DNA of 29,844 nucleotides from a virus. Lineage: Duplodnaviria; Caudoviricetes. Where the stretch lies: the IMG/VR virus record IMGVR_UViG_3300033485_000063, positions 1-29,844 of that record. One strand, given 5' to 3'. Under the pieces are notes generated by a model. That model ran no database searches. It saw only the letters and a program-made list of their open reading frames with translations, and was not told the origin of the DNA. This document shows positions 7,067-29,844 of this stretch, in pieces (position 1 is the first letter of the stretch; each line of letters begins with the position of its first letter). A program made the position numbers and the translations under genes.

Positions 7067-7105
7067 TCGGCTGCGTCCGAACAGGGCGAGCCACGGAGGT
7101 GAGTC

Positions 7106-8226: not shown

Positions 8227-8814
8227 ATGGTCGCCACACTCGTTCTCGGTCCGACGGAAGAGCCCGTGACCGTCGCGGACATGAAGGACTATCTGCGGGT
8301 GGACACCACGACGGATGATGGGCTGATCGCGGCGCTCATCACCGCAGCCCGCGAGGAGATCGAGGACTGGACGCGGCGGAAGTTCATGACGCAGACGTGG
8401 GACTACTTTCCGCAGCGGTTCCCGTCGGCGAATTACATCACGATCCCATTCGGGAATCTGAAGACGGTGACATACGTCAAGCACACGGATACGGCGGGGA
8501 CCGTCACGACGTTGACTGCGGGCACGGACTACATCGTCGAGACGAACGGAGATCAGCATGGGCGCATCGTGCTGCCGTATGGGGAGACGTGGGCGAGCGG
8601 ACCGTTCTACACGTCGAACCCGATCGTCATTCGGTTCGTCTGCGGGTGGACGACGCGGGCGTCCGTGCCGGGGAAGATCAGGACCGCGATCATGCTGCGC
8701 GTCGCGGCGAGGTACGAGGACCGGGGCGAGTCGGTCATCGGGCAGACGGTCGTGGAGAACAAGGCGGCGGAGATGCTGATCGCGTCCGAGCGGCTGTGGG
8801 GGATCTTCGAGTGA
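8227..8814 (+). CDS. Head-tail connector (gp6/gp15-like, long form)
   Basis: PTEEPVTVADMKDYLRVD...DDGLIAALITAAREEIE..T.R..MTQTW, IRFVCGW, VPGKIRTAI, YEDR; AGGAGG RBS before ATG 8227. Confidence 0.9.
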   Translation: MVATLVLGPTEEPVTVADMKDYLRVDTTTDDGLIAALITAAREEIEDWTRRKFMTQTWDYFPQRFPSANYITIPFGNLKTVTYVKHTDTAGTVTTLTAGTDYIVETNGDQHGRIVLPYGETWASGPFYTSNPIVIRFVCGWTTRASVPGKIRTAIMLRVAARYEDRGESVIGQTVVENKAAEMLIASERLWGIFE

Positions 8815-9131
8815 GGATCGGCGGGCTGCGGCATCGGATCGAACTGCAGGCGTTCACGTCGGTGTCCGACGGGATGGGCGGGCAGACGAACACGTGGACG
8901 ACCGAGGATGCGGTGCGTGCGGCGATCTGGCCCGTGTCCGCTGCGGAACAGATCAAGGCGGGAGCGCAGGCGATGACTGCGACGCACCGCATTCAGATCC
9001 GATACTTCGAAGGACTGAAGCCGTCGTGGAGGGTGAAGTTCGGGTCGCGGTACTTTTCGATCGTCAGCATCATCGACAAGGACGAGAAGCACGCGCAGGT
9101 GGATCTGCTTTGTCGGGAGGTCGTATCGTGA
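8811..9131 (+). CDS. Head-closure / head-tail adaptor (SPP1 gp16-like)
   Basis: GTG start in a GTGA overlap; IGGLRHRIELQ, DGMGG, THRIQIRY, RYFSIVSI, LLCRE. Confidence 0.9.
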   Translation: MRIGGLRHRIELQAFTSVSDGMGGQTNTWTTEDAVRAAIWPVSAAEQIKAGAQAMTATHRIQIRYFEGLKPSWRVKFGSRYFSIVSIIDKDEKHAQVDLLCREVVS

Positions 9132-9616
9132 ACGCGCTGTCGATGGAACTCATGCGGAAGGTCGTGGAGGAATACGACCTCGCGGACGGGAAGACGGTCA
9201 TCGACGTCGGTAGTTACGATGTGAATGGAACATACCGTCCGCTGTTCGCCAGCAGTCGGTACGTCGGCGCGGACATCCGTCCCGGACCGAACGTCGACGT
9301 CATCGTCGACTCCCCGGAGTGGCACGCGCTGAAGGGAGCGGACGCCATCGTGACCGGCAGCACGTTCGAGCACGTCGAGGATGCGCCGAAACTGATGGAG
9401 CAGATGTACGAGGTGCTCGCGCCCGGAGGGGTTCTGTGCGTGCAGGTCCCGTCGTGCGGGCCGAAGCACGACTACCCGAACTGGTACAGAAATTATTCGG
9501 CGGCGGACATGGCGTTCCTGATGGAGATGGCGGGGTTCACCGTGCTGCACACGGAGATCGACCCGCACCCCGAGTTCATGTTCTGCACCGCCATCGCGAG
9601 GAAGTACGTCCCGTGA
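9128..9616 (+). CDS. Class I SAM-dependent methyltransferase (type 11-like)
   Basis: VIDVGSYDVNG motif I, YVGADIRPGPNVD, STFEHV, VLAPGG..VQVP, HDYP..YR; GTGA overlaps at both ends. Confidence 0.85.
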   Translation: MNALSMELMRKVVEEYDLADGKTVIDVGSYDVNGTYRPLFASSRYVGADIRPGPNVDVIVDSPEWHALKGADAIVTGSTFEHVEDAPKLMEQMYEVLAPGGVLCVQVPSCGPKHDYPNWYRNYSAADMAFLMEMAGFTVLHTEIDPHPEFMFCTAIARKYVP

Positions 9617-10023
9617 AGAACCTGACGACCGCCATCTATACGCATGCGGCGGGGACGGCGTTCTCGACATCGATCGGCGGCAGGTTTTATAAGGCGCGCA
9701 TTCCGCAGGGGACGGCGTTCCCGTATGCGCTGTTCTTCGTGGTGACGGATATGCCGATCGACACGTTCACGGATAGCATCGAGGAAGTGACCGTGCAGTT
9801 CTCGGTCTTTTCGAAGGCGTCGAGCAGTTCGGAGATCGAGGACATCTTCACGAACCTGAAGGCGGCGTACGACGGCGCCGTGTTGACGATCACCGGGAAC
9901 AAGATGATCGTCATGGAGCGACAGGTCGCGAGTCTCGCGAACGTTGCCGATGATACGCCGGACGGAACGGGCGAGTATTGGCAATACGATGTGGACTACA
10001 GCATCATCATGCAGAAGACCTGA
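9613..10023 (+). CDS. Tail completion/terminator protein (DUF3168-like)
   Basis: GGRFY...PQGTAFPY, VQFSVFS, C-terminal QYDVDY; size and position upstream of the tail tube. Confidence 0.75.
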   Translation: MKNLTTAIYTHAAGTAFSTSIGGRFYKARIPQGTAFPYALFFVVTDMPIDTFTDSIEEVTVQFSVFSKASSSSEIEDIFTNLKAAYDGAVLTITGNKMIVMERQVASLANVADDTPDGTGEYWQYDVDYSIIMQKT

Positions 10024-10033
10024 AGGGGGGATC

Positions 10034-10780
10034 ATGGCGAAGCAGGGAGGAAACTCTGGAGTCCCGAAGGACGCGGTCAGTTTCTCGGACGCGGCGACGA
10101 TCGCGCTGTCGACGCCCGAGCCGGAGCCGGTGTCGAAGCCGTTCGTGAATCACAGTCTGCCGTACAGCCCGACGGTCGCCGAGATCGAGCAGTACGTCGT
10201 CTCCATCGGATCGGATGACGTTCTCACGTTCGGAGGGGAGCGGATCGAGGGCGCGTACATTCAGCAGATACCGGACGAGATCGCCCCGTGCATCCACGCG
10301 ATGCTCGAATCCGGCGAGCACGTCGACTCGTATCTTGAGATCGGCGTCGCCGCCGGGGGGATGACGCTGCTGATGCACCACTACTTCCAGCCGTCGATCA
10401 TCGTGCTGGTAGATACGAACGAGCATCCTCGCTGCGTGAATCGACCGCAGGTGCTCGCGGGCATCAGGCGGGACGAGGTCATCGGTAGTTCGGGGGATGC
10501 CGGCACGTACGCGAATGTGCTCGCGCTCGGGCACGTCTACGACGCGGTGATGATCGACGGGGTCCACTACTACGACAACGTGAAGAAGGACGTGGAACTG
10601 TACGCATCGCTTCTGCGGAACGGGGGGTTCCTCATGCTGCACGATTCCGCGCTGACGGCGTGGGGCGTACCGAAAGTCGTCGCGGAACTGAAGGAAGACC
10701 CCGCGTGGCATTTCATCGGCGAGTGGGCGACGACGAAGATGAAGGCGTGCGGCGTCGCGCTGTTTCAGCGGGTGACGTGA
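10034..10780 (+). CDS. Class I SAM-dependent methyltransferase (Methyltransf_24-like)
   Basis: YLEIGVAAGG, YDAVMIDGVHYYDNVKKD, LRNGGFLMLHD, GVPKV; ATG 10034 after a GGGGGG RBS. Confidence 0.85.
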   Translation: MAKQGGNSGVPKDAVSFSDAATIALSTPEPEPVSKPFVNHSLPYSPTVAEIEQYVVSIGSDDVLTFGGERIEGAYIQQIPDEIAPCIHAMLESGEHVDSYLEIGVAAGGMTLLMHHYFQPSIIVLVDTNEHPRCVNRPQVLAGIRRDEVIGSSGDAGTYANVLALGHVYDAVMIDGVHYYDNVKKDVELYASLLRNGGFLMLHDSALTAWGVPKVVAELKEDPAWHFIGEWATTKMKACGVALFQRVT

Positions 10781-10995
10781 TGGCGGTCGCCGGGACGAAC
10801 ACCATCTGCAAGGAGATATGCGACGCGCTCGGCTTGAAGAACGTACGTCGGCTGCAGATCAAGATGGAGGTGGACAGCCTCGTGACTGTGGAGGCGGAGT
10901 TCTTTCCAGAGGTCAATGGAGTGAAGGCGGTCTATACGATCATGCGTGAATACGAACTTGTCCCGAAGAAGGGACTTGACGGGAGGCGGGGTTGA
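10780..10995 (+). CDS. Small hypothetical protein (71 aa, MAVAGTNTICKEICDALGLKNV...)
   Basis: TGATG coupling to the upstream gene and TTGA overlap with the downstream gene. Confidence 0.65.
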   Translation: MAVAGTNTICKEICDALGLKNVRRLQIKMEVDSLVTVEAEFFPEVNGVKAVYTIMREYELVPKKGLDGRRG

Positions 10996-11783
10996 AGTTC
11001 TCGTTCGGAGCGCTCGTGAATGACATCGTTCGGCTGGACATGGTCCTGCGGAAGTCGGAACTCGATCCGACGTTGCCGTGCCATATCATCAAGACGCCAT
11101 CCTGCGCGACCGTCGGGATGAATAAACTGCTCGGGCTCTTCGAGAAGGACGGGGCGGACGTCGGCGTGCTGACGCATCAGGATATGTTCTACAGGAACGG
11201 GTGGCTCAAGCAGGTGGAGGAGCAGATCAAACTGCTGCCGCCGTCGTGGATCGTCGCAGGCATCATCGGGAAGGACATGGACGGGGCGATCTGCGGGAAG
11301 TTCCATGATATGCGCGTCCCGTTGTGCTTCAACACGGAGGACATGCACACGTTCCCGCATCCGGCGTCGTGCTTCGACGAGTGCTGCATCCTCGTCAATA
11401 TGAAGAAGGGGTTCCGGTTCGACCAGAGGCTGCGCGGATTCGATCTGTACGGGACGCTCGCGGTGTGTCAGGCGTGGGAGATGGGCGGGACGGCGTGGAT
11501 CATCGACGCCTATGCGGAGCACTACTGCATGCGTCCGTTCACATGGTTCCCTGACAAGCAGTTCGAAGCGGGCTTCAAGTGGCTGCACGAGAAATTCCCG
11601 AACGCGCCGCGCATCGACACGACGGTGCTTGGCGTTCCGAACAAGAGCAACCCGGCGAGGTACGACGTGATGGTTCCGACGGATAAGAGGCTACACTCGC
11701 AGATCATGGCTGCAGAGAAGGAGGCGAAGGCCAATCCGGTACGCGATGGCGCTTCTCGTGAAGTTCAACCCTCAACCGTGTAG
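10992..11783 (+). CDS. GT-A fold glycosyltransferase-like protein (GT2-like, HQD type)
   Basis: TTG start after GGGAGG; GMN, VLTHQDM...W, AGIIG, FDECCI, FRFD...GFDLYG, EH pattern. Confidence 0.72.
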   Translation: MKFSFGALVNDIVRLDMVLRKSELDPTLPCHIIKTPSCATVGMNKLLGLFEKDGADVGVLTHQDMFYRNGWLKQVEEQIKLLPPSWIVAGIIGKDMDGAICGKFHDMRVPLCFNTEDMHTFPHPASCFDECCILVNMKKGFRFDQRLRGFDLYGTLAVCQAWEMGGTAWIIDAYAEHYCMRPFTWFPDKQFEAGFKWLHEKFPNAPRIDTTVLGVPNKSNPARYDVMVPTDKRLHSQIMAAEKEAKANPVRDGASREVQPSTV

Positions 11784-11798
11784 ATAGGAGGAACGACT

Positions 11799-12215
11799 AT
11801 GTCGAGCATCGGAGGAAGACTGGCGAAGGTCATGTACGGATCGGTCGTCGTGGCGGGCATCGGGACGTGGAGCATGAGCGGGTTCGTCCCGGACATCGCG
11901 GAGGACACCGCGTTCGGCGACACGGTGAAGAAGTGGAAGCGGGCGGGCATCGACGATGCAGGGTCGGTCTCGTTCGATGGGCTGTACGACCCGGACAACG
12001 CGACGGGGCAGGTCGCGCTGAACGCTCTTGCGACGAGCACGAGCGGGCTGACGAACCTGTACTTCTACGAGTCGACCTCCGTGTTCTGGCGGGTCGCTTC
12101 GGGCGGGGAAATCCTGCTCGACAAGTTCAACGTCGTCAGCATGAGCAAGTCCGGTCTGGCGACCGTGTCGTTCTCGGGCAAGGTGTCCGGGAAGGCGATG
12201 GAGCGCGTCGCCTAA
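11799..12215 (+). CDS. Major tail (tube) protein
   Basis: W-S-M, EDTAFGD..K....G..D.G.VSFDG.YD, Q..L, terminal VSFSGKVSG; precedes the chaperone and tape measure; AGGAGG RBS. Confidence 0.85.
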   Translation: MSSIGGRLAKVMYGSVVVAGIGTWSMSGFVPDIAEDTAFGDTVKKWKRAGIDDAGSVSFDGLYDPDNATGQVALNALATSTSGLTNLYFYESTSVFWRVASGGEILLDKFNVVSMSKSGLATVSFSGKVSGKAMERVA

Positions 12216-12245
12216 TACATCAACGAACCCGAACGAGGAGGAACG

Positions 12246-12704
12246 ATGAGATTCGATCTGTCGGAAGTACAAGGCGAGTGGTTCACATTCTTCCGCTCTG
12301 AGATCAAGGAGAACGGCGACGTCAACTACCTTGACCCCGAGCCGGACGCCGGGAGGGTCTGCCTGCGGATCGCCGACGCTGAGGCGGTCGAACGCATACA
12401 GGCACAGACGCGGAAGAAGAAGGCCGAATTCGTCCCGAACCCGAAGACGCGGCAGATGGAGCGCGTCGTGTATTTCGATCAGACTCCCGAGCAGGAGAAG
12501 AAGGAGCGGGAACTGATCTGGGACTGGGCGATTCAGGACTGGAAGGGAATCCTCGATAAGAACGGTGACGAGATCCCCTGCACGTTGGAGAACAAACTCC
12601 GGCTGATGAGCATTCCGGTGTTCGCCCGTTTCGTCGGGCGGTGCCTGCAACTCATCACCGGAGCGAACGCGCAGACGGCAGAGGCGGAAATAAAAAACTC
12701 ATAG
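12246..12704 (+). CDS. Tail assembly chaperone (gpG-like)
   Basis: IQDWKGILDKNGDEIPCTLENK motif; ends in EIKNS over a slippery heptamer. Confidence 0.85.
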   Translation: MRFDLSEVQGEWFTFFRSEIKENGDVNYLDPEPDAGRVCLRIADAEAVERIQAQTRKKKAEFVPNPKTRQMERVVYFDQTPEQEKKERELIWDWAIQDWKGILDKNGDEIPCTLENKLRLMSIPVFARFVGRCLQLITGANAQTAEAEIKNS

Positions 12705-12751
12705 CCCGGATAGAGTGGGTGGAGGACTACTCCCCCACTTGTCCGGGCTGT
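12692..12751 (+). promoter_or_regulatory. Programmed -1 frameshift signal (A AAA AAC) with downstream hairpin
   Basis: Heptamer at 12692-12698 is in the X XXY YYZ register of the chaperone frame; inverted repeat at 12701-12751; the -1 frame is open to 13027. Confidence 0.82.
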
Positions 12752-13027
12752 ACTGAAATGCACGCACGGCGGGACCCGGCGCAATTGCCTCCGTGCGAGA
12801 CATGCAGGGTGGAACTTATCGAGGAGAACGCCGATGCGGAACTTGTCTACCAGATGGCGAAGCGACAGGTCCGCATCGCGCCGGGGTCAGGTCAGATCAT
12901 CGACCTCGACTACGCGGCGGTCAAAGCAATCATGGACATCTACGAGATCGCTGATCAAAGGACGTGCTTCATGAAAGTGGCGCGGGCGTTCCATCATATC
13001 CTCGCCGAGCGGCAGAGGAAGGATTGA
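12698..13027 (+). CDS. Frameshift extension of the tail chaperone (gpT-like) with two CxxC motifs
   Basis: The -1 frame reads LIARIEWVEDYSPTCPGC...PPCETC...ENADA...LDYAAV; no convincing start of its own. Confidence 0.75.
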   Translation, partial: LIARIEWVEDYSPTCPGCTEMHARRDPAQLPPCETCRVELIEENADAELVYQMAKRQVRIAPGSGQIIDLDYAAVKAIMDIYEIADQRTCFMKVARAFHHILAERQRKD

Positions 13028-13028
13028 C

Positions 13029-13478
13029 ATGGCGAAGATCGACTTCGATCTGCAGAAGTACGACGGGGAGTTCAAGAAGGCGGGGATGCAGCGGCTCACG
13101 GAATGCGCCGAGGTGATCCGGGACAAGGCGCGGGACCTCGTCGTGATCGGCACGGTGACCCGCGTCCCCGGCCGGCGCAGGTTCGTCAACGCGGAAGGGC
13201 ATCTCGTCCCTTCGACCAATCCCCCGATCTGGATGGAGCGGACCCCGGGCGCGATGAAGAAAACGATCCGTGTCGTGCGAAGGGAAGAGGTCGTGGACTT
13301 CTCGCCGAAGGACGACAACGTCCGGGTCTACGCGGGGAACTATAAGACGTGGTACGCGGTTCAAATGGAATACGGACACGGACAATGGAGGGGCGGGCCT
13401 CGTCCGTTCATGCGGAAGGCGATTGCAGCGGCGCAGAGCGCGATCCGTTCCATCATAGAGGGCGGCGGATATGGCTGA
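13029..13478 (+). CDS. HK97 gp10-like tail component
   Basis: IRDKAR, G.MKKTI, WYAVQMEYGH...PRPFMRKA signature. Confidence 0.8.
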   Translation: MAKIDFDLQKYDGEFKKAGMQRLTECAEVIRDKARDLVVIGTVTRVPGRRRFVNAEGHLVPSTNPPIWMERTPGAMKKTIRVVRREEVVDFSPKDDNVRVYAGNYKTWYAVQMEYGHGQWRGGPRPFMRKAIAAAQSAIRSIIEGGGYG

Positions 13479-16400
13479 TAAAAGACCTGTCGGCACGATG
13501 TTCGTTGAACTGTCGCTCGACGCCACGAAGTACAAGACGGCGCAGAAGGAGATCCTCGCCGGCGCGGAGAAGAACTCCGCCGACATCGAGAAGGCATTCA
13601 AGACCGTCGGGGCTACGTCGGACAAGATGTATCAGGCGATGCGTCAGAACATCATCAATCATCTCGAAGCGATCAAGCGGTCGCACCTGCTGAACGAGGA
13701 CGAGAAGGTCGTCGCCGCGAAGGCGGCGCACGCGAAACTGCAGAAGATGGAAGAGGAGAGGTACGGCAAGCAGGTATCTCTTCTCGACAGCATGAAGAAG
13801 AACTGGCTCGCCGCCACCGCCGCGATCACGGGGGCGTACATGGCGATGAGCAAGGCGTTCGACCTCGTGGAGAAATCCGCCGCATACGCCGAGTCGCTTG
13901 AGAATCTGAACATGTTCACGCAGCAGTACAGCGTCTCGGGGAAGGAGATGGTCGACGTCATCGCCCGGAACTCTGCCGGGCTCATCAGCGTGTCCGTGGC
14001 TGCGGAGACCGCGACGGCGGCGATGGCGAAGGGGTTCACCCCCGAGATGCTCGCGAACATGGCGAAGTGGGCCCCGATCCTCGACGATATGTCGACGAAG
14101 GTGAACTCGTCGAATGAAGCGTTCAATGTGCTCATCGACTCCCTGTCCACGGGGCGGGAGCGCGGCGTGACGCAATTGCTTGGGGCGACCATCGACCTGA
14201 AGGCCGCGTTCGGGGAGCAGGCTGCCGAGATGACCCGGGCAGAGAAGGCGATGGCCATGTACTCGCTTGTCGCGAAGCGCATGGAGGAGATACAGAAAAC
14301 GGGGATGGGGTCTACCGACTCCTACGCGGACAAGATCGAGCGGTTCAAGAACACGCTCGAAGAGGTGAAGTTGACGATCGGAGACTTCATCGCCCGCGTC
14401 GGGGCTGGCATCCTCGCGATATTTCAGTCGGTCGCGGAACTCGGGTCGGTGTTCGCGAGCGCGCTGCTCGCCCCGATTTATGCGGCGATGAAGGTGACGG
14501 ATTACTTCGGGATCACGAAGGGCAAGGCGGACGAGGTCAAGCAGTCGATGGACGCGCTCGCGATGTCCGCTGATGACCTCGGGAAGAAGGCTGCTGCGAA
14601 CTTCGAACTGATGAAGAAGGGGATGTTCGCTGTCGGCGGTACGAAGGGTGCGCCCGTGAAACTCGGGCTCGAGGATGCGGCGGAGGGCGAGTCGAAGAAG
14701 GTCAAGGCGCTGAACGATAAGATCCTCGAGGACGTTCGGAAGACCGCGCTCGCGATCGAGCAGATGAACATGGACACATACCACAAGGAACTCGCCCGCA
14801 TCGACTCGCAGGCGAAGGCGTGGCTCGCGGAGGGGGCGAGCGAGGTTCAGGTCGCGAAGTGGGTAGCAAAAGAAAAAGAGAAGGCGGGGGCGGAGCAGGC
14901 GGAGCGCGACAGGAAACTCGCGGACGAGACGTCGAAGTTCTATTTCGCCGAGGCGGCAAAGCGAGCGAAGGAGCAGGACGACCTTCTGAAGGCGCGGGTC
15001 GATGCCGAGTTCGATGCGATGGAGGAAATCCTCCGCGGGCAAATCTACTATCAGGAACAGATGGACGCGGCGACGGGGACCGATCCGACGACGATGATCC
15101 TGAAGCGCGAGGCTGGGGAGAAGGCCCTCCTCGAACTTCAGCAGAGGCGATTGATCGCGAGCATCACCGAGCAGACGACGTTCGAGGAGACGCTGAGGAT
15201 CATGGCGCAGGTCCGCGCCATCGACGAGCAGATCGCGGCGCTCAAGGATATGACGACGACCGATCTGATCGTCCGCAGGATCAAGATCGAACAGGAACTC
15301 CTTGCCATTCAGCAGCAGCAGAAGAGCCTCGCCGAGGACATCGCGTTCCAGTACCAGCAGGCGTCGCTGAACGCGATGGGGCTGACGAAGATCGCGCAGT
15401 TCGCTGGACTCTCGCAAAGCATCGAAACCGGAAAGGACATCTATCGGCAGGAGTACGATGCGTTCCTTGAACTGCAAGAGAAGAAGATTCAACTCCTCGA
15501 GGAGAAGGGGGGCGAGCAGGTAGCGATCAACGAAGCGTTCCGCGAGATCGACCTGAAGTACGAGGAGATGCGGAACAAGCAGAAGATCGACATGCTGTCG
15601 GCGGGGTTCGGTGCGGCGGCGGAGATCGCGGAGCAGTTCTACAAGGCGGGCGGCAAGCAAGGCGGCGCGGCATTCGAGGCGTACAAGGCGTTCAGTATCG
15701 CGCAGGCGGTCATCGACACGTACAAGGGGGCGCAGGCGGCGTACGCCGCGATGGCGGGGTTCCCGCTTGCAGGACCCGCGCTTGCCGTGGCTGCGGCTGC
15801 GGCGGCGATCGCAGCGGGGATCGCGAGGGTGAACGCGATCAAGAACGCGCAGCCGGGGAGCGCGTCCGTATCGTCAGGCGGGGGTGGGACCGTTATTCAT
15901 GCCCCCACCGGCGTGCCCCGCACCACGGTCCTCGGGGCGGCGGCCGGCACGGAGAGCGAGTCGATCAAGAACGTCATCGATATCCTCGGTGATACGTACG
16001 ATCTGCAGTCGCAGGAATTGACCCGCATCCGTTCGGAGATGGTGGACCTGAACAAGAACATTACCGGTCTGGTGACGAGCATCGTCCGGGGCGGGAAGAT
16101 CGGGACCTCCGAGGGGCTGTCACTCGGGATCGATATGGGGTCGATCACGAAGTGGTCGCAGAACATAACGACGCAGATGGCGAACGTCATCACGCTCGGC
16201 ATCCTCCCGGGGCTGGCGGAGACCGTCGGGAAGTGGTTCGGGAGCGCGGCGAATGCCGTCTTCGGCGGAAGCATCAAGAAGGAACTGCAGGGAGCGGGCA
16301 TCGAGTTCAAGGCGAACGAGGTCGGCAAGATTCTCGCGAACGAGTACATCGACGCGATGTCGTACCAGATCGTCAAGACCACGAAGGATGGCGGGATTCT

Positions 16401-20528: not shown

Positions 20529-20529
20529 C

Positions 20530-23835: not shown

Positions 23836-24212
23836 AGAACTTCTCCGTGTATGACGGCACGGGCAGGATCGTGCGGACCGGACTATGCAAGGAGATCGAC
23901 CTTCCCCGAGTGGTGATGGCTGGGGAGTCCTACGTCGACTATCTCGTGAACCCGGAAACGGAGTACATGGTGGACGGCAGTCCAGCGACGCGCCCGACGA
24001 ATCCCGTGACGCTCGACAAGAAGACGGTCACGATCGGAGAGTCGGCGACGTTCAGCAGCGTGCCGACCGGCACGACGTTCGACGTTGACGGGGACGTCGT
24101 GACCGTGAACGACGGGTCGCTCGTCCTGACGTTCGACACGGAGGGGGAGTATCCGGTGAGGATTACCTGCTTCCCGTATCTCGACCACGAGGTGACGATC
24201 ACATGCTCCTGA
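23832..24212 (+). CDS. Hypothetical tail-associated protein (126 aa)
   Basis: GTGA overlap with the tip gene, GGAGG RBS; FSVYDGTGRIVRTG start and Ig-like-looking C-terminal half. Confidence 0.7.
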   Translation: MKNFSVYDGTGRIVRTGLCKEIDLPRVVMAGESYVDYLVNPETEYMVDGSPATRPTNPVTLDKKTVTIGESATFSSVPTGTTFDVDGDVVTVNDGSLVLTFDTEGEYPVRITCFPYLDHEVTITCS

Positions 24213-24454
24213 ACGTGACGCGGGAGTACATCCTGAAGATCGGGGTGCGGGAGGCGTTCCTGAAGGTGTTCAAGGGACTGTTCAATCACGAGAACCGGAT
24301 GCGCCCGCTCTACAAGGTCGCGTTCGATCAAGAGAACCGCATCCGGGTGCTGGAGGGGCGGGCGCAGATCACCGAGGTGGCGTTCCTCAACGCGATCGAC
24401 GACCTCGATCAAGTCACGAAGCGGCAGTTCATCGTCGCGCTGAAAAACCTGTAA
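24203..24454 (+). CDS. Small helical hypothetical protein (83 aa)
   Basis: GAGGTGA RBS; overlaps the upstream gene. Confidence 0.65.
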   Translation: MLLNVTREYILKIGVREAFLKVFKGLFNHENRMRPLYKVAFDQENRIRVLEGRAQITEVAFLNAIDDLDQVTKRQFIVALKNL

Positions 24455-24464
24455 GGGGGACACG

Positions 24465-24617
24465 ATGCCGAAGACGTTCGAGTTCACGGAGGAACTGGTC
24501 GACGAGATTCTCGGATACCTAGGGGAGCAGAAGTACACGCAGGTCGCGCCACTCATCAACAAGATCGGCAAGGTGATCGCGGATGCGGACAAGGCGGAGC
24601 CGAAGAAGGAGGAGTAG
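24465..24617 (+). CDS. Small hypothetical protein (50 aa, MPKTFEFTEELVDEILGYLGEQKYTQVAPLINKI...), not in the ORF track
   Basis: AAGGGGG RBS, ATG 24465, TAG 24615-24617; fills the gap exactly. Confidence 0.7.
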   Translation: MPKTFEFTEELVDEILGYLGEQKYTQVAPLINKIGKVIADADKAEPKKEE

Positions 24618-24619
24618 CG

Positions 24620-24856
24620 ATGGCGAAGACCGTAATCTACCACATGAGCGCTCTCACCGGGGGCGCAGCCAACGCGCTCGACTCCATCGACGGGAACGAA
24701 CTGGAGGACGGGTATCGCGCCATCGTGATGATTCACGGGACGTGGGCGCTGCACCTGTACACGCTCGACGCGGACTCGGGCGCTGCGGAGTCGTCGCCCG
24801 CCGTCATCCGCCCGGACACGAACTACGGCAACAAGCGATGGATCAAGTGCTCGTGA
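24620..24856 (+). CDS. 78-aa protein paralogous to the C-terminal domain of the next gene
   Basis: AGGAGGAG RBS; LTG...LDSIDG..L.DG.RA...Y.LD.DSGA.ESSP..I.P.TN.G.KRW..C. Confidence 0.8.
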   Translation: MAKTVIYHMSALTGGAANALDSIDGNELEDGYRAIVMIHGTWALHLYTLDADSGAAESSPAVIRPDTNYGNKRWIKCS

Positions 24857-24870
24857 TCGGAGAGTAGCGA

Positions 24871-27717
24871 ATGGCGATCTCCGTCGTACAGAAGACGCCG
24901 AACTCGGCGACGCTCGCTGGAGGAAACAACAGCGGCGATCTTGCGTCGGCGTTTCCGTCGAATGTGACGGCGGGGAACTGCATCATTGTCATGGGGTCGA
25001 GCAGTCGCGGGTCCGCGCCTTCCATCTCCGACAATCGGGGGAACACCTACGTCTCCGTCGGGTGGGCGAACAAGTCCGCAGGCGGGGCGACGTGGGATGC
25101 GTGGTACTGCGCGAGCGCGATCGGTGGGGCGACGACGATCACGCTCTCGGCAACAGGTACGGGGGACACGTACCTCGGCGCGGTTGAGGTGTCTGGGCTT
25201 TGCAAGCGGTATCCGCTCGACAGCCATAACTCCACGACGACGAGCGGGCTGACCTCGCCGTCGATCACGACCATCTCCGCGAGCAGCATCGTGTTTGGCT
25301 TCGCGTTCGCCGGCAACGGATCGGCTGCTCCGACCGTCGGGAACATCGACGGGTCCGCCGCGACCGCCATCGGAGTGACGAACAACGGAGGGGACAATCC
25401 GGGGTGGGAGTACCGCATCCTGTCGAGCACGGCGACGACGACCGCCGCGTTCGCGACCGGCGGCGGAACGATGTACACGCAGATCGCCGTCTTCCGGCCG
25501 GAGATGCTCGCCCCCGCTCATGTTCAGGATCAGATCGGGTATACGTCGGGAAGCGGAGCGACCGTCGTGTCAGCGTCCGGGACGTTCATGCCGGGAAGCC
25601 TCATCGTCGTGTGCGTCGGATGGCTGAACGCGAGCGCCGCGACGGTCAGCAGCATCGCGCAGTCCTCCGGGTCGAATACATGGGTTCAGGTACACGCGCC
25701 TCGGGCATACGGAGGATACAACGCGAGCGACGTCTGGTACGCCTACAACGCGACCGGATTCACCGGGACGATCACGGTCACGCTTTCAAGTTCCTCGGCG
25801 ACGTACAAGAGCCTCGTCGTGTCGGAGTACACGGGGTTCACGAGTCCTGCCGATCCGCTCGATACGCATCAGGACGCCGGGGAGTGGGCGACGACCGTCA
25901 ACACCGGAGCCACCGGGAACATCACGACGTGGAACGGACCGGGAGTCGTCATCGGCTTTGTCAAGTTTGCAGCATCGCCCACGGTATCAGCGCGGACGAT
26001 CAATGGCGGCGCGGTGGACGGATACGTCGCCGTCACGCAGGGAGAACTGACGTACAAGGTCATGACGGGAACGATGACGGGCGAGGCATCGTGGACCGTA
26101 AACTCAGCGAGCGATTCGACGGTCTGGATCGTGTCATTCAAGAGCCATCCGCGCTTCACGGCGACGGACACCCTGTCGCTCGCGTCTGATCTGGAAGTCA
26201 CAGGCACGACCCCTCCGGGGATGGAGTACGTCCAGTCGAAGGGACTCGCGTCGGCGGGAAGTTCCGGGACGATCGCGCAGACGCTCGACAGCGACGTCCT
26301 GTCGGGAAGCCTGCTCGTCGTCGTGGCGTCGTGCGTCGACGCCTCGGGGACGATCACCGCGACGTGCGCGGACTCCCTCGGGTCATCGTACACGCTCGGC
26401 GTCGGTCCCACGCGGAACGCGGACCTGAACGGGACGGGGTATGCTCAGTGGATTTTCTACAAGGCGTCCTCACCGTCGGGTGCGAACACGGTGACGGTGA
26501 CGTTCAGTACGTCGACGACGGATAGGCGCATCGACATCTTGGAGTATTCGGGGGTCGCGCTGTCGTCGCCTGTCACGGGTACTCCGGTCGGGGCGACGGG
26601 AACGACTGGAGCACCGAACAGCGGCAACACTACGACGACCGTCGATGATGCGCTGATCGTCGGCGGCGGGCTGCATGACGGAGGGAACCTGACGGCGGGC
26701 GCGACCTTCACGCAGCGCGTCCGGGCTGACGGGTATGACTGCACGGAGGACAAGATCGTGTCGTCGGCGGGAGCATACGCCGCGACGTTCTCGACCGGGA
26801 CAAGCGACTGGATCGCGCAGGTCATCGCGTTCCGGTCGTCGCTGACGGGCGTCTACTTCTCCGTGACCGAGACTCTCTCTGTGGCATTCACCCTGTCGAC
26901 CCCGAAGGTCGGGAGCAATCTGTTCAGCAGCAGCGACGCGCTGGCGCTGGCGGACTCCCTCACGGTGAACGCGAACTCGCAGATCGTGCAGGTGTCGGTG
27001 TTGGAATCGCTCACCGTGGGCGAGATCGGATACCTGTCGGGGGACACCATCACCGTGCTGCCGTCGGACGGGCTACTGCTCGATGACTCGTTTACGTTGT
27101 TCATCGACGGGCGGAGCGTGGAGACGGCGGAGTCGCTGTCGCTCGCTGACTCGGCGACGATCGCGTTCAACCAGTCGGGGCTGTCGTTCTCCGAGTCGGC
27201 GGACTTCGCGGACTCCGTGGCGATCAAGCCCTCCGGGATAAAGTTCAGCGTCTACCATGACGCCGTGCTCGGCGACGCGCTGACGGTGCTCCGTCCGGTG
27301 CTGACGTTCGAGGGATCGGACTCCATCGCGCTGTCCGATTCAATGCAGAAGGCGAGCGGCACGATCACGCTGTCCTTCACCGAGACATTGAGTCTGGCGG
27401 ACAGCGATACGGTGTCGCCGAGCGGCGCGGTCCGGTTCTCCGTGACCGACATCGCGTCGTTCACGGACGCCGTGCAGAGGGCGACGACGAAGCAGGTGAA
27501 CACGCTGTACTGCTTCTCGTCGCTGACGGGCAGTTCGGCATCGCTCGACTCGCTTGACGGCGACGCCCTGACGGACGGCGACAGGGCGTGGGTCATCGCG
27601 TCGAACGTGTCGTACTGGTACTATCTTGACGAGGACTCCGGGGCAACGGAATCATCCCCGTCGATCATCGCTCCGAACACGAACGCTGGAGCGAAGCGGT
27701 GGCGCAGATGTACGTGA
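24871..27717 (+). CDS. Ser/Thr/Gly-rich modular fibre or adhesin-like virion protein (948 aa)
   Basis: Three ~200-aa beta domains (start xVQ, end F[RK]), then [DE]xLxLxD spacer repeats and a C-terminal domain shared with 24620..24856. Confidence 0.75.
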   Translation: MAISVVQKTPNSATLAGGNNSGDLASAFPSNVTAGNCIIVMGSSSRGSAPSISDNRGNTYVSVGWANKSAGGATWDAWYCASAIGGATTITLSATGTGDTYLGAVEVSGLCKRYPLDSHNSTTTSGLTSPSITTISASSIVFGFAFAGNGSAAPTVGNIDGSAATAIGVTNNGGDNPGWEYRILSSTATTTAAFATGGGTMYTQIAVFRPEMLAPAHVQDQIGYTSGSGATVVSASGTFMPGSLIVVCVGWLNASAATVSSIAQSSGSNTWVQVHAPRAYGGYNASDVWYAYNATGFTGTITVTLSSSSATYKSLVVSEYTGFTSPADPLDTHQDAGEWATTVNTGATGNITTWNGPGVVIGFVKFAASPTVSARTINGGAVDGYVAVTQGELTYKVMTGTMTGEASWTVNSASDSTVWIVSFKSHPRFTATDTLSLASDLEVTGTTPPGMEYVQSKGLASAGSSGTIAQTLDSDVLSGSLLVVVASCVDASGTITATCADSLGSSYTLGVGPTRNADLNGTGYAQWIFYKASSPSGANTVTVTFSTSTTDRRIDILEYSGVALSSPVTGTPVGATGTTGAPNSGNTTTTVDDALIVGGGLHDGGNLTAGATFTQRVRADGYDCTEDKIVSSAGAYAATFSTGTSDWIAQVIAFRSSLTGVYFSVTETLSVAFTLSTPKVGSNLFSSSDALALADSLTVNANSQIVQVSVLESLTVGEIGYLSGDTITVLPSDGLLLDDSFTLFIDGRSVETAESLSLADSATIAFNQSGLSFSESADFADSVAIKPSGIKFSVYHDAVLGDALTVLRPVLTFEGSDSIALSDSMQKASGTITLSFTETLSLADSDTVSPSGAVRFSVTDIASFTDAVQRATTKQVNTLYCFSSLTGSSASLDSLDGDALTDGDRAWVIASNVSYWYYLDEDSGATESSPSIIAPNTNAGAKRWRRCT

Positions 27718-27757
27718 TGTCGGCAGTCAACACCTAAACGGACAGGAGGAATCGGAC

Positions 27758-28267
27758 ATGGCAAGAAAAACTGCGGGAAGGAAGAAGGCGGTCGGCTGGA
27801 AGGACTCCATGCGGATCAAGGGATTCTGCCGCGTCGGTGTCTACGAGTACGGACCGAACGGCGAGCCGAACTACAAACTCGTCAGCGATTCGGGATTCGT
27901 CCCGAACCAGAAGACGAACGTCGGCTTCATGAACTACCTGAACTACGTCCTCGGCGCGAGCGCGGGCTCCCTGCTCGTGTCGTCGGCGGCGGTCGGGACC
28001 GGGGGCACGCCCGCGAGCAACGCGACGTCGCTGACCGGCGAGTCGATGGTGCGGCGTCCGACCACGTACTCCGCGCCCGCGTCGACGCAGGTGCAGTGGA
28101 TCGCGTCGTGGGACTCCTCGCTCTGCACGGGTTCGTTCACCGTGGGGAACGCGGGGCTGTTCAACTCGTCCTCGGGCGGGTCGCTGGCGTGGGGCATCAG
28201 CACCCCCGGTCAGACGTGGAACACGAACCAGTCGCTCGCGTTGACCTACCTGCTCAACCTGTCGTAA
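27758..28267 (+). CDS. Putative fibre-associated/collar-like structural protein (169 aa)
   Basis: AGGAGG RBS before ATG 27758; N..TN.G, AVGTG.T....T.L..E, AGLFNSSSGG.L pattern I associate with phage fibre-anchor proteins. Confidence 0.65.
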   Translation: MARKTAGRKKAVGWKDSMRIKGFCRVGVYEYGPNGEPNYKLVSDSGFVPNQKTNVGFMNYLNYVLGASAGSLLVSSAAVGTGGTPASNATSLTGESMVRRPTTYSAPASTQVQWIASWDSSLCTGSFTVGNAGLFNSSSGGSLAWGISTPGQTWNTNQSLALTYLLNLS

Positions 28268-28301
28268 GGGGCGAGCAGTACAAACACCCGAAGGAGGAAC
28301 G

Positions 28302-28943
28302 ATGGAAGCGCTGGAGAGAGTAATCGCGGACAACTTCCACGCGATGTACTACTACTCGCCGCACACTTGGAACGGCGGCGTGACGCGGTGGAAGGGAATA
28401 CCGGTCCTCGGCAATCCGCTCGATATGTGGATGCTGCAACAGACCATAGTCGAGACCAAACCCGACGTCATCGTCGAGACGGGGTCGGCTTGCGGAGGAT
28501 CGGCGCTTTTCTACACGGACGTGCTGCCGAAGGTTCGGATCATCTCGATCGACATCCAGACCGAGATGCAGCCGATGATCGAGCATCCGCGCATCACGTT
28601 CGTGAAGGCGATGTCCACGGACAAGAAGACGATCGCGATGGTGGGGAAGGAGTCGAGGGGGAAGCGGGTCATGGTCATCCTCGACTCCGACCACACGACG
28701 GCGAACGTGCTGGCGGAACTGAAGGCGTATGCGCCGATGGTGACGCGGGGCTGCTACCTGATCGTGCAGGACACGAATATCGACTGCTCGCCCGTGAACC
28801 ATCCGCAGTTCAAGGACAACGGACCGACGAAGGCGGTCAATATCTTCATGCAGGGGAACAAGGACTTCGAGGTCGACCACTACAAGGAGGAGGGGTTCTA
28901 TATGACGTTCTATCCGGGCGGATGGCTGAGGTGCATCCGATGA
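28302..28943 (+). CDS. CmcI-family (cephalosporin hydroxylase / rhamnosyl O-methyltransferase-like) protein
   Basis: WKGIP...P.DMW..Q, KPDVIVETGSACGGSALF, VMVILDSDH, LAELKAYAPMVT.GCYLIVQDT, GP..AV, TFYPGGWL. Confidence 0.9.
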   Translation: MEALERVIADNFHAMYYYSPHTWNGGVTRWKGIPVLGNPLDMWMLQQTIVETKPDVIVETGSACGGSALFYTDVLPKVRIISIDIQTEMQPMIEHPRITFVKAMSTDKKTIAMVGKESRGKRVMVILDSDHTTANVLAELKAYAPMVTRGCYLIVQDTNIDCSPVNHPQFKDNGPTKAVNIFMQGNKDFEVDHYKEEGFYMTFYPGGWLRCIR

Positions 28944-29368
28944 AAAACGACATGGGGCTGCTGATCCACATCGGAGAAGGGGAGGCGCCGAAGGGGTTCA
29001 CGCACTGTGAGTTCGACCTCGAGCGGTTCCCGTATCCGCTGCGCCCGGACTCCGTCCACATCTGCCTGCTGCCGCACGCGCTGGAGCACGTGAAGCCGTG
29101 GCTGATCTTCAAGGCGTTCAATGAACTGTGGCGCGTCATCAAACCGGAGGGGCAACTCGCGATCGCGACGGCGTATGCGGGGTCGCCCGCGTGGTGGGGC
29201 GATCCGTCGCATTGTACCGGCTTCAACGAGCGGTCATTCTTTTATCTCACGCCGTCGCATGCGGCATTCGACGCGAAGAAGTCGAAGCCGTGGGCGATCG
29301 AGAAGGGGAACCCCGTGTATCAGGTGAACGGAAACATCGAGTGCGTCCTACGGCCGGTGAAGTCATGA
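28940..29368 (+). CDS. Methyltransferase-like protein (type 11-like, degenerate motif I)
   Basis: ATGA overlap; DLERFPYPLRPDSV, HALEH, NELWRVIKPEG, DPSH..GFNERSF. Confidence 0.75.
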   Translation: MKNDMGLLIHIGEGEAPKGFTHCEFDLERFPYPLRPDSVHICLLPHALEHVKPWLIFKAFNELWRVIKPEGQLAIATAYAGSPAWWGDPSHCTGFNERSFFYLTPSHAAFDAKKSKPWAIEKGNPVYQVNGNIECVLRPVKS

Positions 29369-29844
29369 AGAGAATCCAACCGAAGCCATACAATCTGCGG
29401 GGCGGCAAGGTGGTACTCACGGAGAAGGCTGACGTGTCCCATCGGATCGTGAGATCCGCCAAGTCGTACAGGAACCGACTGATGGTCGCGGTCGGCATGA
29501 CGGGACTCATCCGGGCGGAGTGGGCGATGGCGCGGTGGGGGCAGACCATCCCGTGCAACTTCCAAGTCATCGACTACGCGATGTGGATGGAGCAGTTCAC
29601 GCCGCTCGGGTTCCTCGTCGCGGACGCCCGGAACCTCGCGGTGCAGGAGTTCCTCGGCAAGAGCGCGGAGTGGCTCGTGTTCATCGATCACGACACGATC
29701 ATCCCGCCCGACTTCTACATCAAGTTCAACGAGCGGATCATCCACGAGCGCGTCCCCGTGTGGAGCGGGCTGTACTTCACGAAGTCCGTGCCGAGCGAGC
29801 CGCTGGTCTATCGCGGGCGCGGGACGGGGTACTACGCCGACTGG
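29365..29844 (+). CDS. GT2-like glycosyltransferase, runs off the window end (not in the ORF track)
   Basis: ATGA overlap; open for 160 codons: VADARNLAVQEFL...AEWLVFIDHDTIIPPD (DxD motif), VWSGLYFTK. Confidence 0.82.
   Translation, partial: MKRIQPKPYNLRGGKVVLTEKADVSHRIVRSAKSYRNRLMVAVGMTGLIRAEWAMARWGQTIPCNFQVIDYAMWMEQFTPLGFLVADARNLAVQEFLGKSAEWLVFIDHDTIIPPDFYIKFNERIIHERVPVWSGLYFTKSVPSEPLVYRGRGTGYYADW

Follow-up and report, generated by a model that had tools for sequence, protein, structure and literature searches.

We find that six modification-enzyme genes of this phage, grouped in two cassettes within the late structural operon, are best read, with moderate confidence, as a predicted system for virion protein glycosylation with sugar O-methylation. 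In related contigs, the glycosyltransferase is the constant element of each cassette and the accessory enzymes vary; since these glycosyltransferases keep a structural-gene neighbour in dozens of phage contigs, the particle is likely to carry methylated sugars. The window analysed here, meaning the entire stretch of DNA, is the whole 29,844-nt record, with an estimated completeness of 65%.

The operon is an uninterrupted + strand block running TerS-TerL-portal-protease-capsid, then tape measure, then fibre. As the earlier note had claimed, six enzyme genes lie inside it. They are real, co-directional and tightly coupled: all lie on the + strand, their junctions are overlaps of 1-4 nt or gaps of 10-40 nt, most starts are preceded by purine-rich GGAGG-like stretches, and no + strand terminators were found near them. 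The enzyme span had been drawn from 8811, which is instead the start of the head completion gene (8811..9131, +; Pfam PF05521 Phage_HCP, 2.7e-27), a gene that overlaps the connector gene by 4 nt at its start and forms the upstream border of cassette 1. This cassette (9128-11783), set between the head completion / tail terminator genes and the gene for the major tail protein, comprises the class I SAM methyltransferase MT_A (9128..9616, +; 162 aa), the Methyltransf_24 / CmcI-clan methyltransferase MT_B (10034..10780, +; 248 aa), a 71-aa ORF with no assigned role (10780..10995, +; no family matched in Pfam, PHROGs or NCBIfam) and, as its core, the predicted Majastridin-like GT-A glycosyltransferase GT1 (10992..11783, +; 263 aa). 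The gene for the tail terminator, or tail completion gp17-like protein (9613..10023, +; Pfam PF11367, 1.8e-10; phrog_176 'tail terminator', 9e-10), has a GTG start at 9613 that overlaps the MT_A stop codon, and the 138-aa major tail (tube) protein is encoded at 11799..12215 (+; phrog_158 'major tail protein', 3.5e-5). Cassette 2 (27758-29844) consists of u27758, a small fibre-like virion protein of 169 aa (27758..28267, +), a CmcI / rhamnosyl-O-methyltransferase family protein of 213 aa (28302..28943, +), MT_D, a small Methyltransf_11-type protein of 142 aa with a degenerate SAM-binding loop (28940..29368, +), and GT2, a predicted STIV-A197-like GT-A glycosyltransferase truncated by the record end (29365..29844, +).

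Ser/Thr-rich surface-type proteins, also proposed from the sequence beforehand, are indeed encoded: Ser+Thr make up 26.8% of a 948-aa fibre-like protein (24871..27717, +) and 21-23% of four other virion-type proteins, versus 7.7-11.3% of the enzymes. The 948-aa protein matched no family in Pfam or PHROGs; its C-terminal 58 residues recur behind the tail protein in one related locus (L004), and a homologue precedes the cassette 2 glycosyltransferase unit described below in another (L014). No membrane-spanning segments were found in the enzymes (maximum 19-residue hydropathy of 1.07), and no nucleotide-sugar synthesis genes were found within the window of this roughly 65% complete record.

Neither glycosyltransferase matched a family in Pfam, PHROGs or NCBIfam, and the family-level label 'GT2' previously attached to them does not hold, as Pfam PF00535 matches neither. 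Both predicted structures are nonetheless clear GT-A folds, which agrees with the enzyme class assigned earlier to the genes at 10992 and 29365, and the Foldseek comparison suggested at that time returned a solved relative for each. The GT1 model (pLDDT 86.3) matches Majastridin (PDB 2nxv/2qgi; Foldseek E 2e-13), aligning to 2nxv with a VIA-align Z of 23.8 and an rmsd of 2.8 over 212 residues at 21% identity, while the chain after Majastridin reaches only Z 14.2. The best sequence-profile match of GT1 is likewise 2qgi (3.3e-8), an entry titled as a UDP complex, and the invariant residues H62, D64, D129, E130 and H177 fall in the stretch aligning with the Majastridin chain of that entry. GT2, of which the record holds 160 of ~290 aa, was folded as the 99% identical full-length form P0121 (pLDDT 80.9). 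Its best structural match is STIV A197 (2c0n; Foldseek E 1e-8; VIA-align Z 16.7, rmsd 2.9 over 173/191 residues, 18% identity), to which the profile E-value is just 0.024, followed by LH3/ColGalT1, mimivirus R699 and SpsA; the invariant residues are D108 and D110 (D108-x-D110), E227, D228 and H266. By profile comparison, the GT1 and GT2 families are unrelated (hhalign probability 0.2%). Lipid-linked glycans, polysaccharides and nucleosides are also substrates of GT-A enzymes, and AvpGT and TarS/TarP are among the fold matches.

In 66/66 related loci that leave 700 nt or more of room, GT1 is immediately followed by a homologue of the major tail protein (median gap 133 nt), although these loci are not independent, as the adjacency stems from a single phage lineage in which gene order is conserved. 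All 75 non-duplicate loci, retrieved with GT1 itself as the query, contain GT1, and it ranks first in the tail module by median identity (62%; the tail protein follows at 54%, the connector at 49%, the terminator at 38% and the tape measure at 33%). The accessory genes around it vary: MT_B homologues occur upstream in 24 of the 75 loci and homologues of the 71-aa ORF in ten (tblastn). Often, GT1 homologues are fused to methyltransferase or other glycosyltransferase domains, with SAM-methyltransferase Pfam domains in 15/120 homologues among the matches listed and an N-terminal extension of at least 200 aa in 54 of 71 GT1 ORFs (longest-ORF call); among the extensions and neighbouring genes are Methyltransf_11, GT92/Glyco_tranf_2_4, Methyltransf_24, a polysaccharide deacetylase and a radical-SAM enzyme. 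At its C-terminus, the window tail protein reads ...ERVA and Ser or Thr ends 49 of 61 unique relatives; the ERVA ending counts against the glycosylation reading.

In cassette 2, the conserved element is a three-gene unit of u27758, MT_D and GT2, whose order and strand are kept in 71 of the 75 viral loci with room; MT_D adjoins GT2 in 73 of 75. Only 9/79 loci have any other structural protein in common with the window, within the flanks examined. The unit sits between capsid and connector genes in one locus (L057) and comes after capsid-type genes in two others (L031 and L074). Members of the u27758 family alignment (A3) matched phrog_5417 (27/33), phrog_4176 'tail fiber protein' (10/33) and phrog_240 'head protein' (2/33). 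Glycan genes near the unit in 19 loci encode GT2 (PF00535), GT9, Anp1-like, sulfotransferase, UDP-glucose dehydrogenase, Methyltransf_24 and CmcI proteins. The CmcI gene at 28302 adjoins the unit in only 7/79 loci.

Four of the six enzyme genes, at 9128, 10034, 28302 and 28940, are of the SAM-methyltransferase type predicted for them, each with a Pfam match. MT_A matches Methyltransf_23 (1.6e-9; 38.1 bits against a cut-off of 27), Methyltransf_11 (2.7e-5) and phrog_32762 'SAM-dependent methyltransferase' (1.3e-11), and shares 37% identity (E 1e-27) with the methyltransferase domain fused to the GT1 homologue P0011. MT_B matches Methyltransf_24 (PF13578, 6.7e-8) and, weakly, CmcI (PF04989, 1.9e-5), as well as a PHROG family labelled 'DNA methyltransferase' (residues 168-222, 3.9e-4). 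The CmcI-like assignment of the gene at 28302 was borne out by a full-length match to RMNT_CmcI (PF04989, 4.9e-48, 164 bits), while its NCBIfam NF045824 score of 123.6 bits is far under the equivalog cut-off of 400 and it resembles solved CmcI only weakly (E 0.057). Both CmcI and Methyltransf_24 are members of an O-methyltransferase clan; PDB comparison shows a weak resemblance to CmcI and catechol O-methyltransferases. MT_D matches only the C-terminal half of the Methyltransf_11 profile (PF08241, 1.9e-4; 22.5 bits against a cut-off of 21.2), and where its family consensus reads LDIGCG...VDIVHDLE, the window copy carries IGEGE instead of the GCG loop and lacks 10 residues at strand beta-2. With the glycine-rich SAM loop lost, no more than three of the four methyltransferases seem competent. 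By Pfam, MT_A and MT_D have generic class I folds and show no substrate signature. A motif scan found neither [DNS]PP[YFW] nor PC[QHN] in any of the four, in keeping with the reported absence of the DPPY/NPPY and PC motifs of DNA methyltransferases.

Precedents exist in cluster O mycobacteriophages, chlorovirus A064R and STIV A197. Virion glycosylation is described for the mycobacteriophages Che8, Corndog/cluster O and Myrna (Freeman et al. 2023, as cited in PMC11600133 and PMC12363180), and cluster O phages have an O-methyltransferase gene followed by three glycosyltransferase genes, with capsid and tail tube as reported targets (PMC11600133). Like those of the mycobacteriophages, the glycosyltransferases of the window are phage-encoded and lie in or beside structural genes. 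Unlike the mycobacteriophages, the window phage is of another host and lineage and has two separate cassettes, each tied to one structural gene; tblastn found no GT1 or GT2 relatives in 50,697 GenBank phage records, so there is no cultured system to lean on. In PBCV-1, A064R joins two rhamnosyltransferases and a methyltransferase, the latter methylating the capsid glycan at O-2 of its terminal rhamnose, a sugar that A064R itself has just added (PMC7826918). This precedent makes the claim that a methyltransferase-plus-glycosyltransferase arrangement is uncharacterised an overstatement. The fusions of GT1 homologues resemble A064R, whereas the domains of the window are separate genes; A064R comes from a giant virus of eukaryotes whose capsid glycan is N-linked, and the likeness noted is one of domain arrangement. 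STIV A197, a minimal viral GT-A glycosyltransferase ~100 residues shorter than GT2, is an essential protein of a virus whose major capsid protein is glycosylated; A197 'possibly glycosylates B345', a candidate acceptor (PMC10551542). Majastridin (ORF6 of the Rhodobacter blasticus atp operon), whose H-x-D stretch aligns with that of GT1, is in contrast cellular and lacks a known phage or structural-gene context; no function for it is established in the literature found by name.

We consider it unlikely that the targets are host envelope glycans (LPS, capsule, teichoic-acid precursors), remodelled by the enzymes late in infection while the particle stays undecorated, in which case progeny could avoid sticking to debris, or superinfection be blocked. 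Fold matches to wall-teichoic-acid TarS/TarP, GtrB, heparosan/chondroitin synthases and WrtF point in this direction, as do the Pfam/NCBIfam names of the CmcI family, according to which its members methylate rhamnose of cell-envelope glycolipids, and the interpretation of phage glycosyltransferases as host-surface modifiers by cyanophage authors (PMC12801897). However, the enzymes are without a membrane segment, no flippase or Gtr-type partner was seen, each core keeps to one structural gene across phages, and a virion-type protein belongs to the three-gene unit. A host-glycan toolkit would also be expected to have cellular relatives, yet a search of 185,579 species genomes gave only four substantial matches, each on a phage-sized MAG contig. 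Modification of phage DNA or nucleotides, with base glycosylation and methylation evading restriction, is highly improbable given that the cassettes lie within head, tail or fibre modules at every locus examined, with no hydroxymethylase or DNA-metabolism gene beside them, that the methyltransferases lack the DNA-type motifs, and that relatives carry polysaccharide-type enzymes nearby (sulfotransferase, deacetylase, UDP-glucose dehydrogenase); in its favour, phage glycosyltransferases and methyltransferases are often anti-restriction enzymes, nucleoside-modifying AvpGT is among the fold matches, and one weak PHROG match of MT_B carries a DNA methyltransferase label.

Two further alternatives keep the virion as the site of action. 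The generic folds of MT_A and MT_D would allow some or all methyltransferases to act on proteins (Lys, Arg, Gln or termini) instead of sugars, with the glycosyltransferases still acting on virion proteins, and in mycobacteriophages a host enzyme is reported to methylate a tail protein in a step vital for infectivity (PMC13445384). This seems distinctly unlikely, as MT_A-type domains are fused directly to GT1 homologues, in parallel to A064R (PMC7826918), and CmcI and Methyltransf_24 fall in the O-methyltransferase clan. It is very unlikely that GT1, whether catalytic or not, serves as a GT-A-fold assembly factor of the tail, acting on or with the tail tube, so that its conservation would stem from assembly rather than from a surface glycan coat. 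Its presence in all loci of the GT1-based retrieval, its top rank in tail-module conservation, its position among the usual sites of assembly genes and a nearest solved relative of no established function would all suit such a factor, but the placement of its invariant residues against the 'UDP complex' chain and the frequent methyltransferase and glycosyltransferase fusions point to catalysis in a glycan pathway.

Taken together, the late-operon setting, solubility, structural-gene locking and fusions fit a virion-directed methylated glycan. For the methyl-capped glycan coat proposed in the earlier note, the enzyme identities, setting, gene locking and fusions therefore stand, while the glycan, its acceptor and the sugar methylation are what we infer. 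Under virion glycosylation, two unrelated soluble GT-A enzymes would attach sugars to virion proteins inside the infected cell, drawing on host nucleotide-sugars as donors, and the neighbouring methyltransferases would likely O-methylate the attached sugars, with MT_B and the CmcI-family protein capping sugar hydroxyls. GT1 may prime the major tail protein, its candidate acceptor, or another neck/tail protein made beside it; GT2 may prime its own candidate acceptor, u27758, or the Ser/Thr-rich fibre. What is new here is the adjacency of GT1 and the tail protein, the fixed u27758-MT_D-GT2 unit and the variable tailoring enzymes around both cores. Such variable accessory enzymes would diversify the glycan between phages, and the resulting coat may serve shielding, adhesion or stability.

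The window, a linear virus record of 29,844 bases taken whole, with a completeness estimate of 65% and a GC content of 59-68%, is the structural half of a siphovirus. Its + strand block runs from small and large terminase through portal, S78 protease, HK97-type capsid protein, head-tail connector, head completion protein, tail terminator and major tail protein to two overlapping chaperone ORFs, a 2,216-aa tape measure, distal tail proteins and a 948-aa fibre-like protein. The six modification-enzyme-like genes that an earlier note had placed within this block were all recovered at their positions. Neighbouring genes overlap by 1-4 nt or are separated by gaps of 10-40 nt, with GGAGG-like stretches ahead of most starts; a terminator scan found no + strand terminator flanking the enzyme genes, and the best results of a promoter scan were 9/12 promoter-like matches at 9978-10007 and 27626-27655. 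The Ser/Thr-rich surface-type proteins described in the same note are also present, Ser and Thr together making up 26.8% of the 948-aa protein and 21-23% of four other virion-type proteins, compared to 8-11% of the enzymes. At E<=1e-3, self-BLAST of the 948-aa fibre yielded no repeats and all-vs-all BLAST of ten virion-type proteins yielded no paralogues.

Several other features of the block were observed. The two tail chaperone ORFs (12246-12704 and 12641-13027) share 64 nt, read in different frames, which is what a programmed frameshift pair (G/GT type) would show. After them, directly before the tape measure gene, lies a Neck1/tail-completion-like gene (13029-13478; phrog_5, 7.5e-9), an atypical location for a neck protein; homologues were identified by tblastn in 46/75 related loci, at the equivalent position where listed. 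The tape measure gene (13471-20121) encodes a very long Ala/Glu/Gln/Asp-rich stretch with recurring ADAQ-/AEAQ-type motifs at approximately residues 1,280-1,900, as judged by eye from the translation, and GC climbs to 67-68% over 17001-20000, within this gene. An overlap of 127 nt between ORFs 6906-7232 and 7106-7618 probably means that one of the two, or its start, has been miscalled. The proteins starting at 7106 and 7682 (7106-7618 and 7682-8218) have no family match and a Ser+Thr content of 21-22%, and their homologues come after the capsid gene in the related viral loci L057, L128, L159 and L160; a role in head decoration or as head fibres is possible, which would make them further candidate glycan acceptors.

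Neither of the two glycosyltransferase-like genes, GT1 (10992-11783) and GT2 (29365-29844), matched a family in Pfam (E<=0.01), PHROGs or NCBIfam, and both were therefore folded from homologue alignments. The predicted GT1 model (pLDDT 86.3) matched Majastridin, the ORF6 product of the Rhodobacter blasticus atp operon, with a Foldseek E of 2e-13, and VIA-align superimposed it on Majastridin entry 2nxv with a Z of 23.8 and an rmsd of 2.8 over 212 residues, the second-best chain reaching Z 14.2. Foldseek returned 133 chains at E<=0.001, and many GT-A enzymes aligned at Z 12-14; the matches other than Majastridin are GT-A enzymes, polypeptide GalNAc-transferases among them. The GT1 sequence profile likewise matched Majastridin (3.3e-8), for which a second PDB entry, 2qgi, is titled as a UDP complex. 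By its predicted structure, GT1 belongs to the GT-A fold glycosyltransferase superfamily. Its H62-Q-D64 is invariant and aligned with the H-E-D of Majastridin, and differs from the canonical DxD.

Only the first 160 codons of GT2 lie within the record, and its fold was taken from P0121, a 290-aa form that is 99% identical. The P0121 model (pLDDT 80.9) best matched A197 of the virus STIV (Foldseek E 1e-8; VIA-align Z 16.7, rmsd 2.9, 173/191 residues), followed by LH3/ColGalT1, mimivirus R699 and SpsA at Z 13-15, and D108-H-D110 is invariant in 44 sequences. As modelled in P0121, GT2 has both a GT-A fold and a DxD motif. Searched by sequence, neither the cut GT2 nor full-length P0121 gave a significant match in the PDB. 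The earlier identification of both genes as glycosyltransferases is thus upheld by GT-A folds in the two predicted structures, while the Pfam family assigned to them, Glycos_transf_2 (PF00535), has to be dropped: neither enzyme reaches the Pfam threshold, and P0121 and its listed homologues carry no precomputed Pfam domain. The profiles of GT1 and GT2 are unrelated to each other. The GT-A-like N-terminal domain of P0107, a GT1 fusion homologue, was considered as a GT2 relative and ruled out when no relation was found.

The four methyltransferase-type genes are backed by Pfam matches. MT_A (9128-9616) matches Methyltransf_23 (1.6e-9; 38.1 bits against a threshold of 27) and MT_B (10034-10780) matches Methyltransf_24 (6.7e-8; 33.8 bits against 26.3) and, weakly, CmcI (1.9e-5); the strict GxGxG string is absent from both, and MT_B has no match in the PDB. 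The gene at 28302-28943 is CmcI-like, as had been proposed, with a match to RMNT_CmcI (PF04989) at 4.9e-48 and 164 bits against a cut-off of 23.2 that covers profile positions 7-204 of 206. NCBIfam sets it close to the rhamnosyl O-methyltransferases, although its 123.6 bits against the equivalog NF045824 are far below the cut-off of 400. For the fourth, MT_D (28940-29368), the assignment holds in part: the C-terminal half only matches Methyltransf_11, just over threshold (1.9e-4), and the SAM-binding motifs are lost. Where the consensus of its family is LDIGCG...GMDKR..VDIVHD, the window copy reads IGEGE and is missing 10 residues at strand beta-2, and its nearest relatives, in L014 and L015, read IGLTD with the loop likewise lost. 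On sequence grounds, MT_D of the window looks inactive.

Database searches with GT1 (E<=0.001) gave 293 relatives, of which the 120 listed are 59-100% identical, and a profile scan of viral contigs identified 123 relatives, of which 80 loci were kept, 75 of them non-duplicate. A major tail protein homologue lies directly downstream of GT1 in all loci with at least 700 nt of downstream sequence (66/66; median gap 133 nt), the two alignments overlapping slightly in 2/66, and is also present in 7/9 loci with less than 700 nt downstream. Upstream of GT1 are tail terminator, head completion and connector genes. All of these loci come from a single phage lineage whose gene order is conserved, so that GT1 and the tail protein gene are neighbours by descent and do not represent 66 independent events. 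With a median identity of 62% across the loci, GT1 ranks ahead of the tail protein (54%), the connector (49%), head completion (45%), the terminator (38%) and the tape measure (33%); it is more conserved than the terminator in 62/62 loci and than the tail protein in 43/73. Judged by these identities, GT1 is the best-conserved gene of its module. The C-terminal residue is Ser or Thr in 49/61 unique major tail proteins of this lineage, with a G-[T/V]-G-[S/T] end in 32/61; the window protein (11799-12215) ends in ...ERVA. The junction between GT1 and the tail protein gene seems to be an insertion hot spot, and Pfam identifies ORFs with the homing endonuclease motif NUMOD3 there in four loci (L003:3002-3784, L132:5432-6280, L147:6718-7524 and L152:6717-8033). 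A 240-aa ORF lies between the connector and head completion genes in another (L005:1304-2026).

The surroundings of GT1 are more variable. N-terminal extensions of at least 200 aa were found in 54/71 GT1 ORFs, which is an upper bound given the longest-ORF call, and SAM-methyltransferase Pfam domains were found in 15 of the 120 listed homologues; the fused domain of one GT1 homologue, P0011, is 37% identical (E 1e-27) to MT_A, a separate gene in the window. Scanned against Pfam, 78 extensions and adjacent ORFs yielded fused Methyltransf_11, fused GT92/Glyco_tranf_2_4 and a weak GT4 match, as well as separate Methyltransf_24 genes, a deacetylase-methyltransferase, a radical-SAM/SPASM enzyme and homing-endonuclease inserts, with no Pfam match for 38 of the 78. 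MT_B homologues lie alongside GT1 in 24/75 loci. One unchanging glycosyltransferase combined with exchangeable tailoring domains would be expected of a glycan pathway whose first step is fixed.

GT2 has 226 longer database relatives at E<=0.001, and 79 viral loci were compared. Among the 75 with at least 1,500 nt upstream, an MT_D homologue adjoins GT2 in 73, and 71 contain a full three-gene unit in the same order and strand, consisting of u27758 (27758-28267, encoding a small fibre-like protein), MT_D and GT2, with a median of 1,176 nt from the start of u27758 to that of GT2; the unit is incomplete in L026, L038, L053 and L091. Within the flanks examined, another structural protein of the window was found in only 9/79 GT2 loci, which argues that the unit moves between otherwise dissimilar phages. 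Its positions differ: it follows the Ser/Thr-rich fibre in the window, lies between capsid genes and connector in L057, has a capsid gene four ORFs upstream in L031 and a ‘virion structural protein’ (phrog_1623, 1e-70) directly upstream in L074, and follows an SU10-type adaptor in L049. CmcI is beside the unit in only 7/79 loci, three of which are the closest relatives L014, L015 and L016; as it is present in L014, L015 and the window, where the SAM loop of MT_D is lost, CmcI may have taken over methylation in this clade. In two loci (L049:8922-9968, 349 aa; L057:3302-4381, 360 aa), MT_D forms a single protein with an MT_B-type Methyltransf_24/CmcI-clan domain, linking the enzyme sets of the GT1 and GT2 cassettes.

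Members of the u27758 family are 150-200 aa long and rich in Ser, Thr, Gly and Asn (median S+T 22%). PHROG matches among 33 members were to phrog_5417 (unknown function; 27), phrog_4176 ‘tail fiber protein’ (10), phrog_3737 ‘tail fiber protein’ (3) and phrog_240 ‘head protein’ (2), with none for the window copy; Pfam gave only weak Gp80 fibre matches, in 2/33. The u27758 profile found nothing in the PDB (best E 0.89), only unnamed or auto-named viral clusters were recovered from the ESM Atlas, and the domain was not found at E<=1e-5 in longer proteins (>=346 aa), the last being weak evidence. A possible N-glycosylation site, an N-x-S/T sequon close to the C-terminus in relatives, was dropped because the window protein has no sequon at that position. 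The 146 ORFs around the unit in 19 loci include PF00535 glycosyltransferases, GT9, Anp1-like proteins, a sulfotransferase, a UDP-glucose dehydrogenase, Methyltransf_24, CmcI and radical-SAM enzymes, with beta-helix proteins just downstream. Cassette enzymes in relatives include a sulfotransferase (L031:9204-9965), a UDP-glucose dehydrogenase (L061:5839-7092), a methyltransferase-polysaccharide deacetylase fusion (L144:2923-3963) and a radical-SAM/SPASM enzyme (L136:1700-2458), which suggests sulfated, uronic-acid or de-N-acetylated variants of the presumed glycan.

By tblastn at E<=1e-5, no relative of GT1 or P0121 was found in 50,697 GenBank phage records, so that neither shows homology to the glycosyltransferases of phages Che8, Corndog and Myrna. 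Searching 185,579 species (one genome each) yielded four substantial GT2 matches, all on MAG contigs of 38-55 kb. In BFVD, GT1 is matched best by GT-A proteins from uncultured phages, none above 18% identity, and no mycobacteriophage protein is named among the best 50, some of which are nameless. Systems of this kind are already known. In the sources as far as consulted, cluster O mycobacteriophages are reported to carry an O-methyltransferase gene followed by three glycosyltransferase genes in tandem, with modification of capsid and tail tube (PMC11600133, PMC12363180, PMC13313380); PBCV-1 A064R is described as two rhamnosyltransferases joined to a methyltransferase acting on the capsid glycan (PMC7826918); and A197 is described as an essential GT-A enzyme of STIV, whose capsid protein is glycosylated (PMC10551542). 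The novelty lies in two enzyme families without a name, in the fixed structural partner that each has, and in how they are spread through uncultured phages; in the literature covered on phage virion or tail tube glycosylation and Majastridin, we found no description of either family.

The late operon contains two unrelated soluble GT-A enzymes, each with a constant structural neighbour and variable tailoring partners. The earlier note had proposed that the phage builds and methyl-caps a glycan coat on its particle, which is plausible and is strengthened by the comparative evidence; its chemistry, the glycan and the methyl groups, we infer. GT1 and GT2 would act in the cytoplasm on newly made virion proteins, using nucleotide-sugars of the host. 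The target of GT1 would be the tail tube, or a neck or tail protein, and that of GT2 the small fibre-like protein u27758 or the adjacent fibre, while MT_B, CmcI and perhaps MT_A would methylate sugar hydroxyls. Glycosylation of virion proteins by GT1 and GT2 with methylation of the sugars, as read here from genes and predicted folds, has in our estimate slightly better than even chances of being correct. Counting against it are the window tail protein, which lacks the C-terminal Ser or Thr of most of its relatives, the inactive appearance of MT_D, and the fact that Majastridin, the nearest solved relative of GT1, has no known function.

GT-A enzymes also serve many acceptor types, which weighs against a virion glycan as well, and the glycans of the host envelope might be remodelled instead; we consider this unlikely, with no membrane-like segment in any of the enzymes (highest hydrophobicity over 19 residues, 1.07) and no Gtr-type (GtrA/GtrB/GtrC) membrane flippase/transferase partners in the window, itself a 65%-complete record. 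Methylation may also be directed at protein rather than sugar, to which we give a rather small probability, as methyltransferase domains are fused to one of the two glycosyltransferases, GT1, in relatives. A role for GT1 in tail assembly appears improbable. Least probable is modification of DNA, as a pattern search found no (D/N/S)PP(Y/F/W) or PC in any of the four methyltransferases, in agreement with the earlier note. Within the preferred reading of virion glycosylation, we tentatively offer a more specific proposal, which is possible and still doubtful: two phage-specific GT-A families without a database name would each modify one virion protein. The first, Majastridin-like and encoded by a core gene throughout a siphovirus lineage, would act on the tail tube of that lineage; the second, A197-like, would pass between unrelated phages in company with a small methyltransferase and with the protein that it modifies, a small fibre mounted on the head or tail.

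In the literature covered, as far as consulted, experimental reports of virion glycosylation in bacterial viruses concern only a few actinobacteriophages, in which it is reported to weaken antibody recognition (PMC11600133, PMC12363180). If two dedicated families are indeed at work, glycosylated, methyl-capped virions would be common among uncultured phages far outside Actinobacteria, and variable tailoring enzymes around two fixed cores would turn the sugar coat of the particle into a surface trait that evolves fast. If the modules do what their anatomy suggests, sugar-coated, methyl-capped particles would be widespread in environmental phages, and their builders would be enzyme families missed by current annotation, unmatched in Pfam, PHROGs and NCBIfam and lacking relatives among GenBank phages by tblastn. 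The fixed pairings of GT1 with the tail tube protein and of GT2 with the small fibre-like protein are directly testable without a host and, if true, would provide a rule to predict the modified virion protein, with a bearing on phage stability, adsorption and immune recognition.
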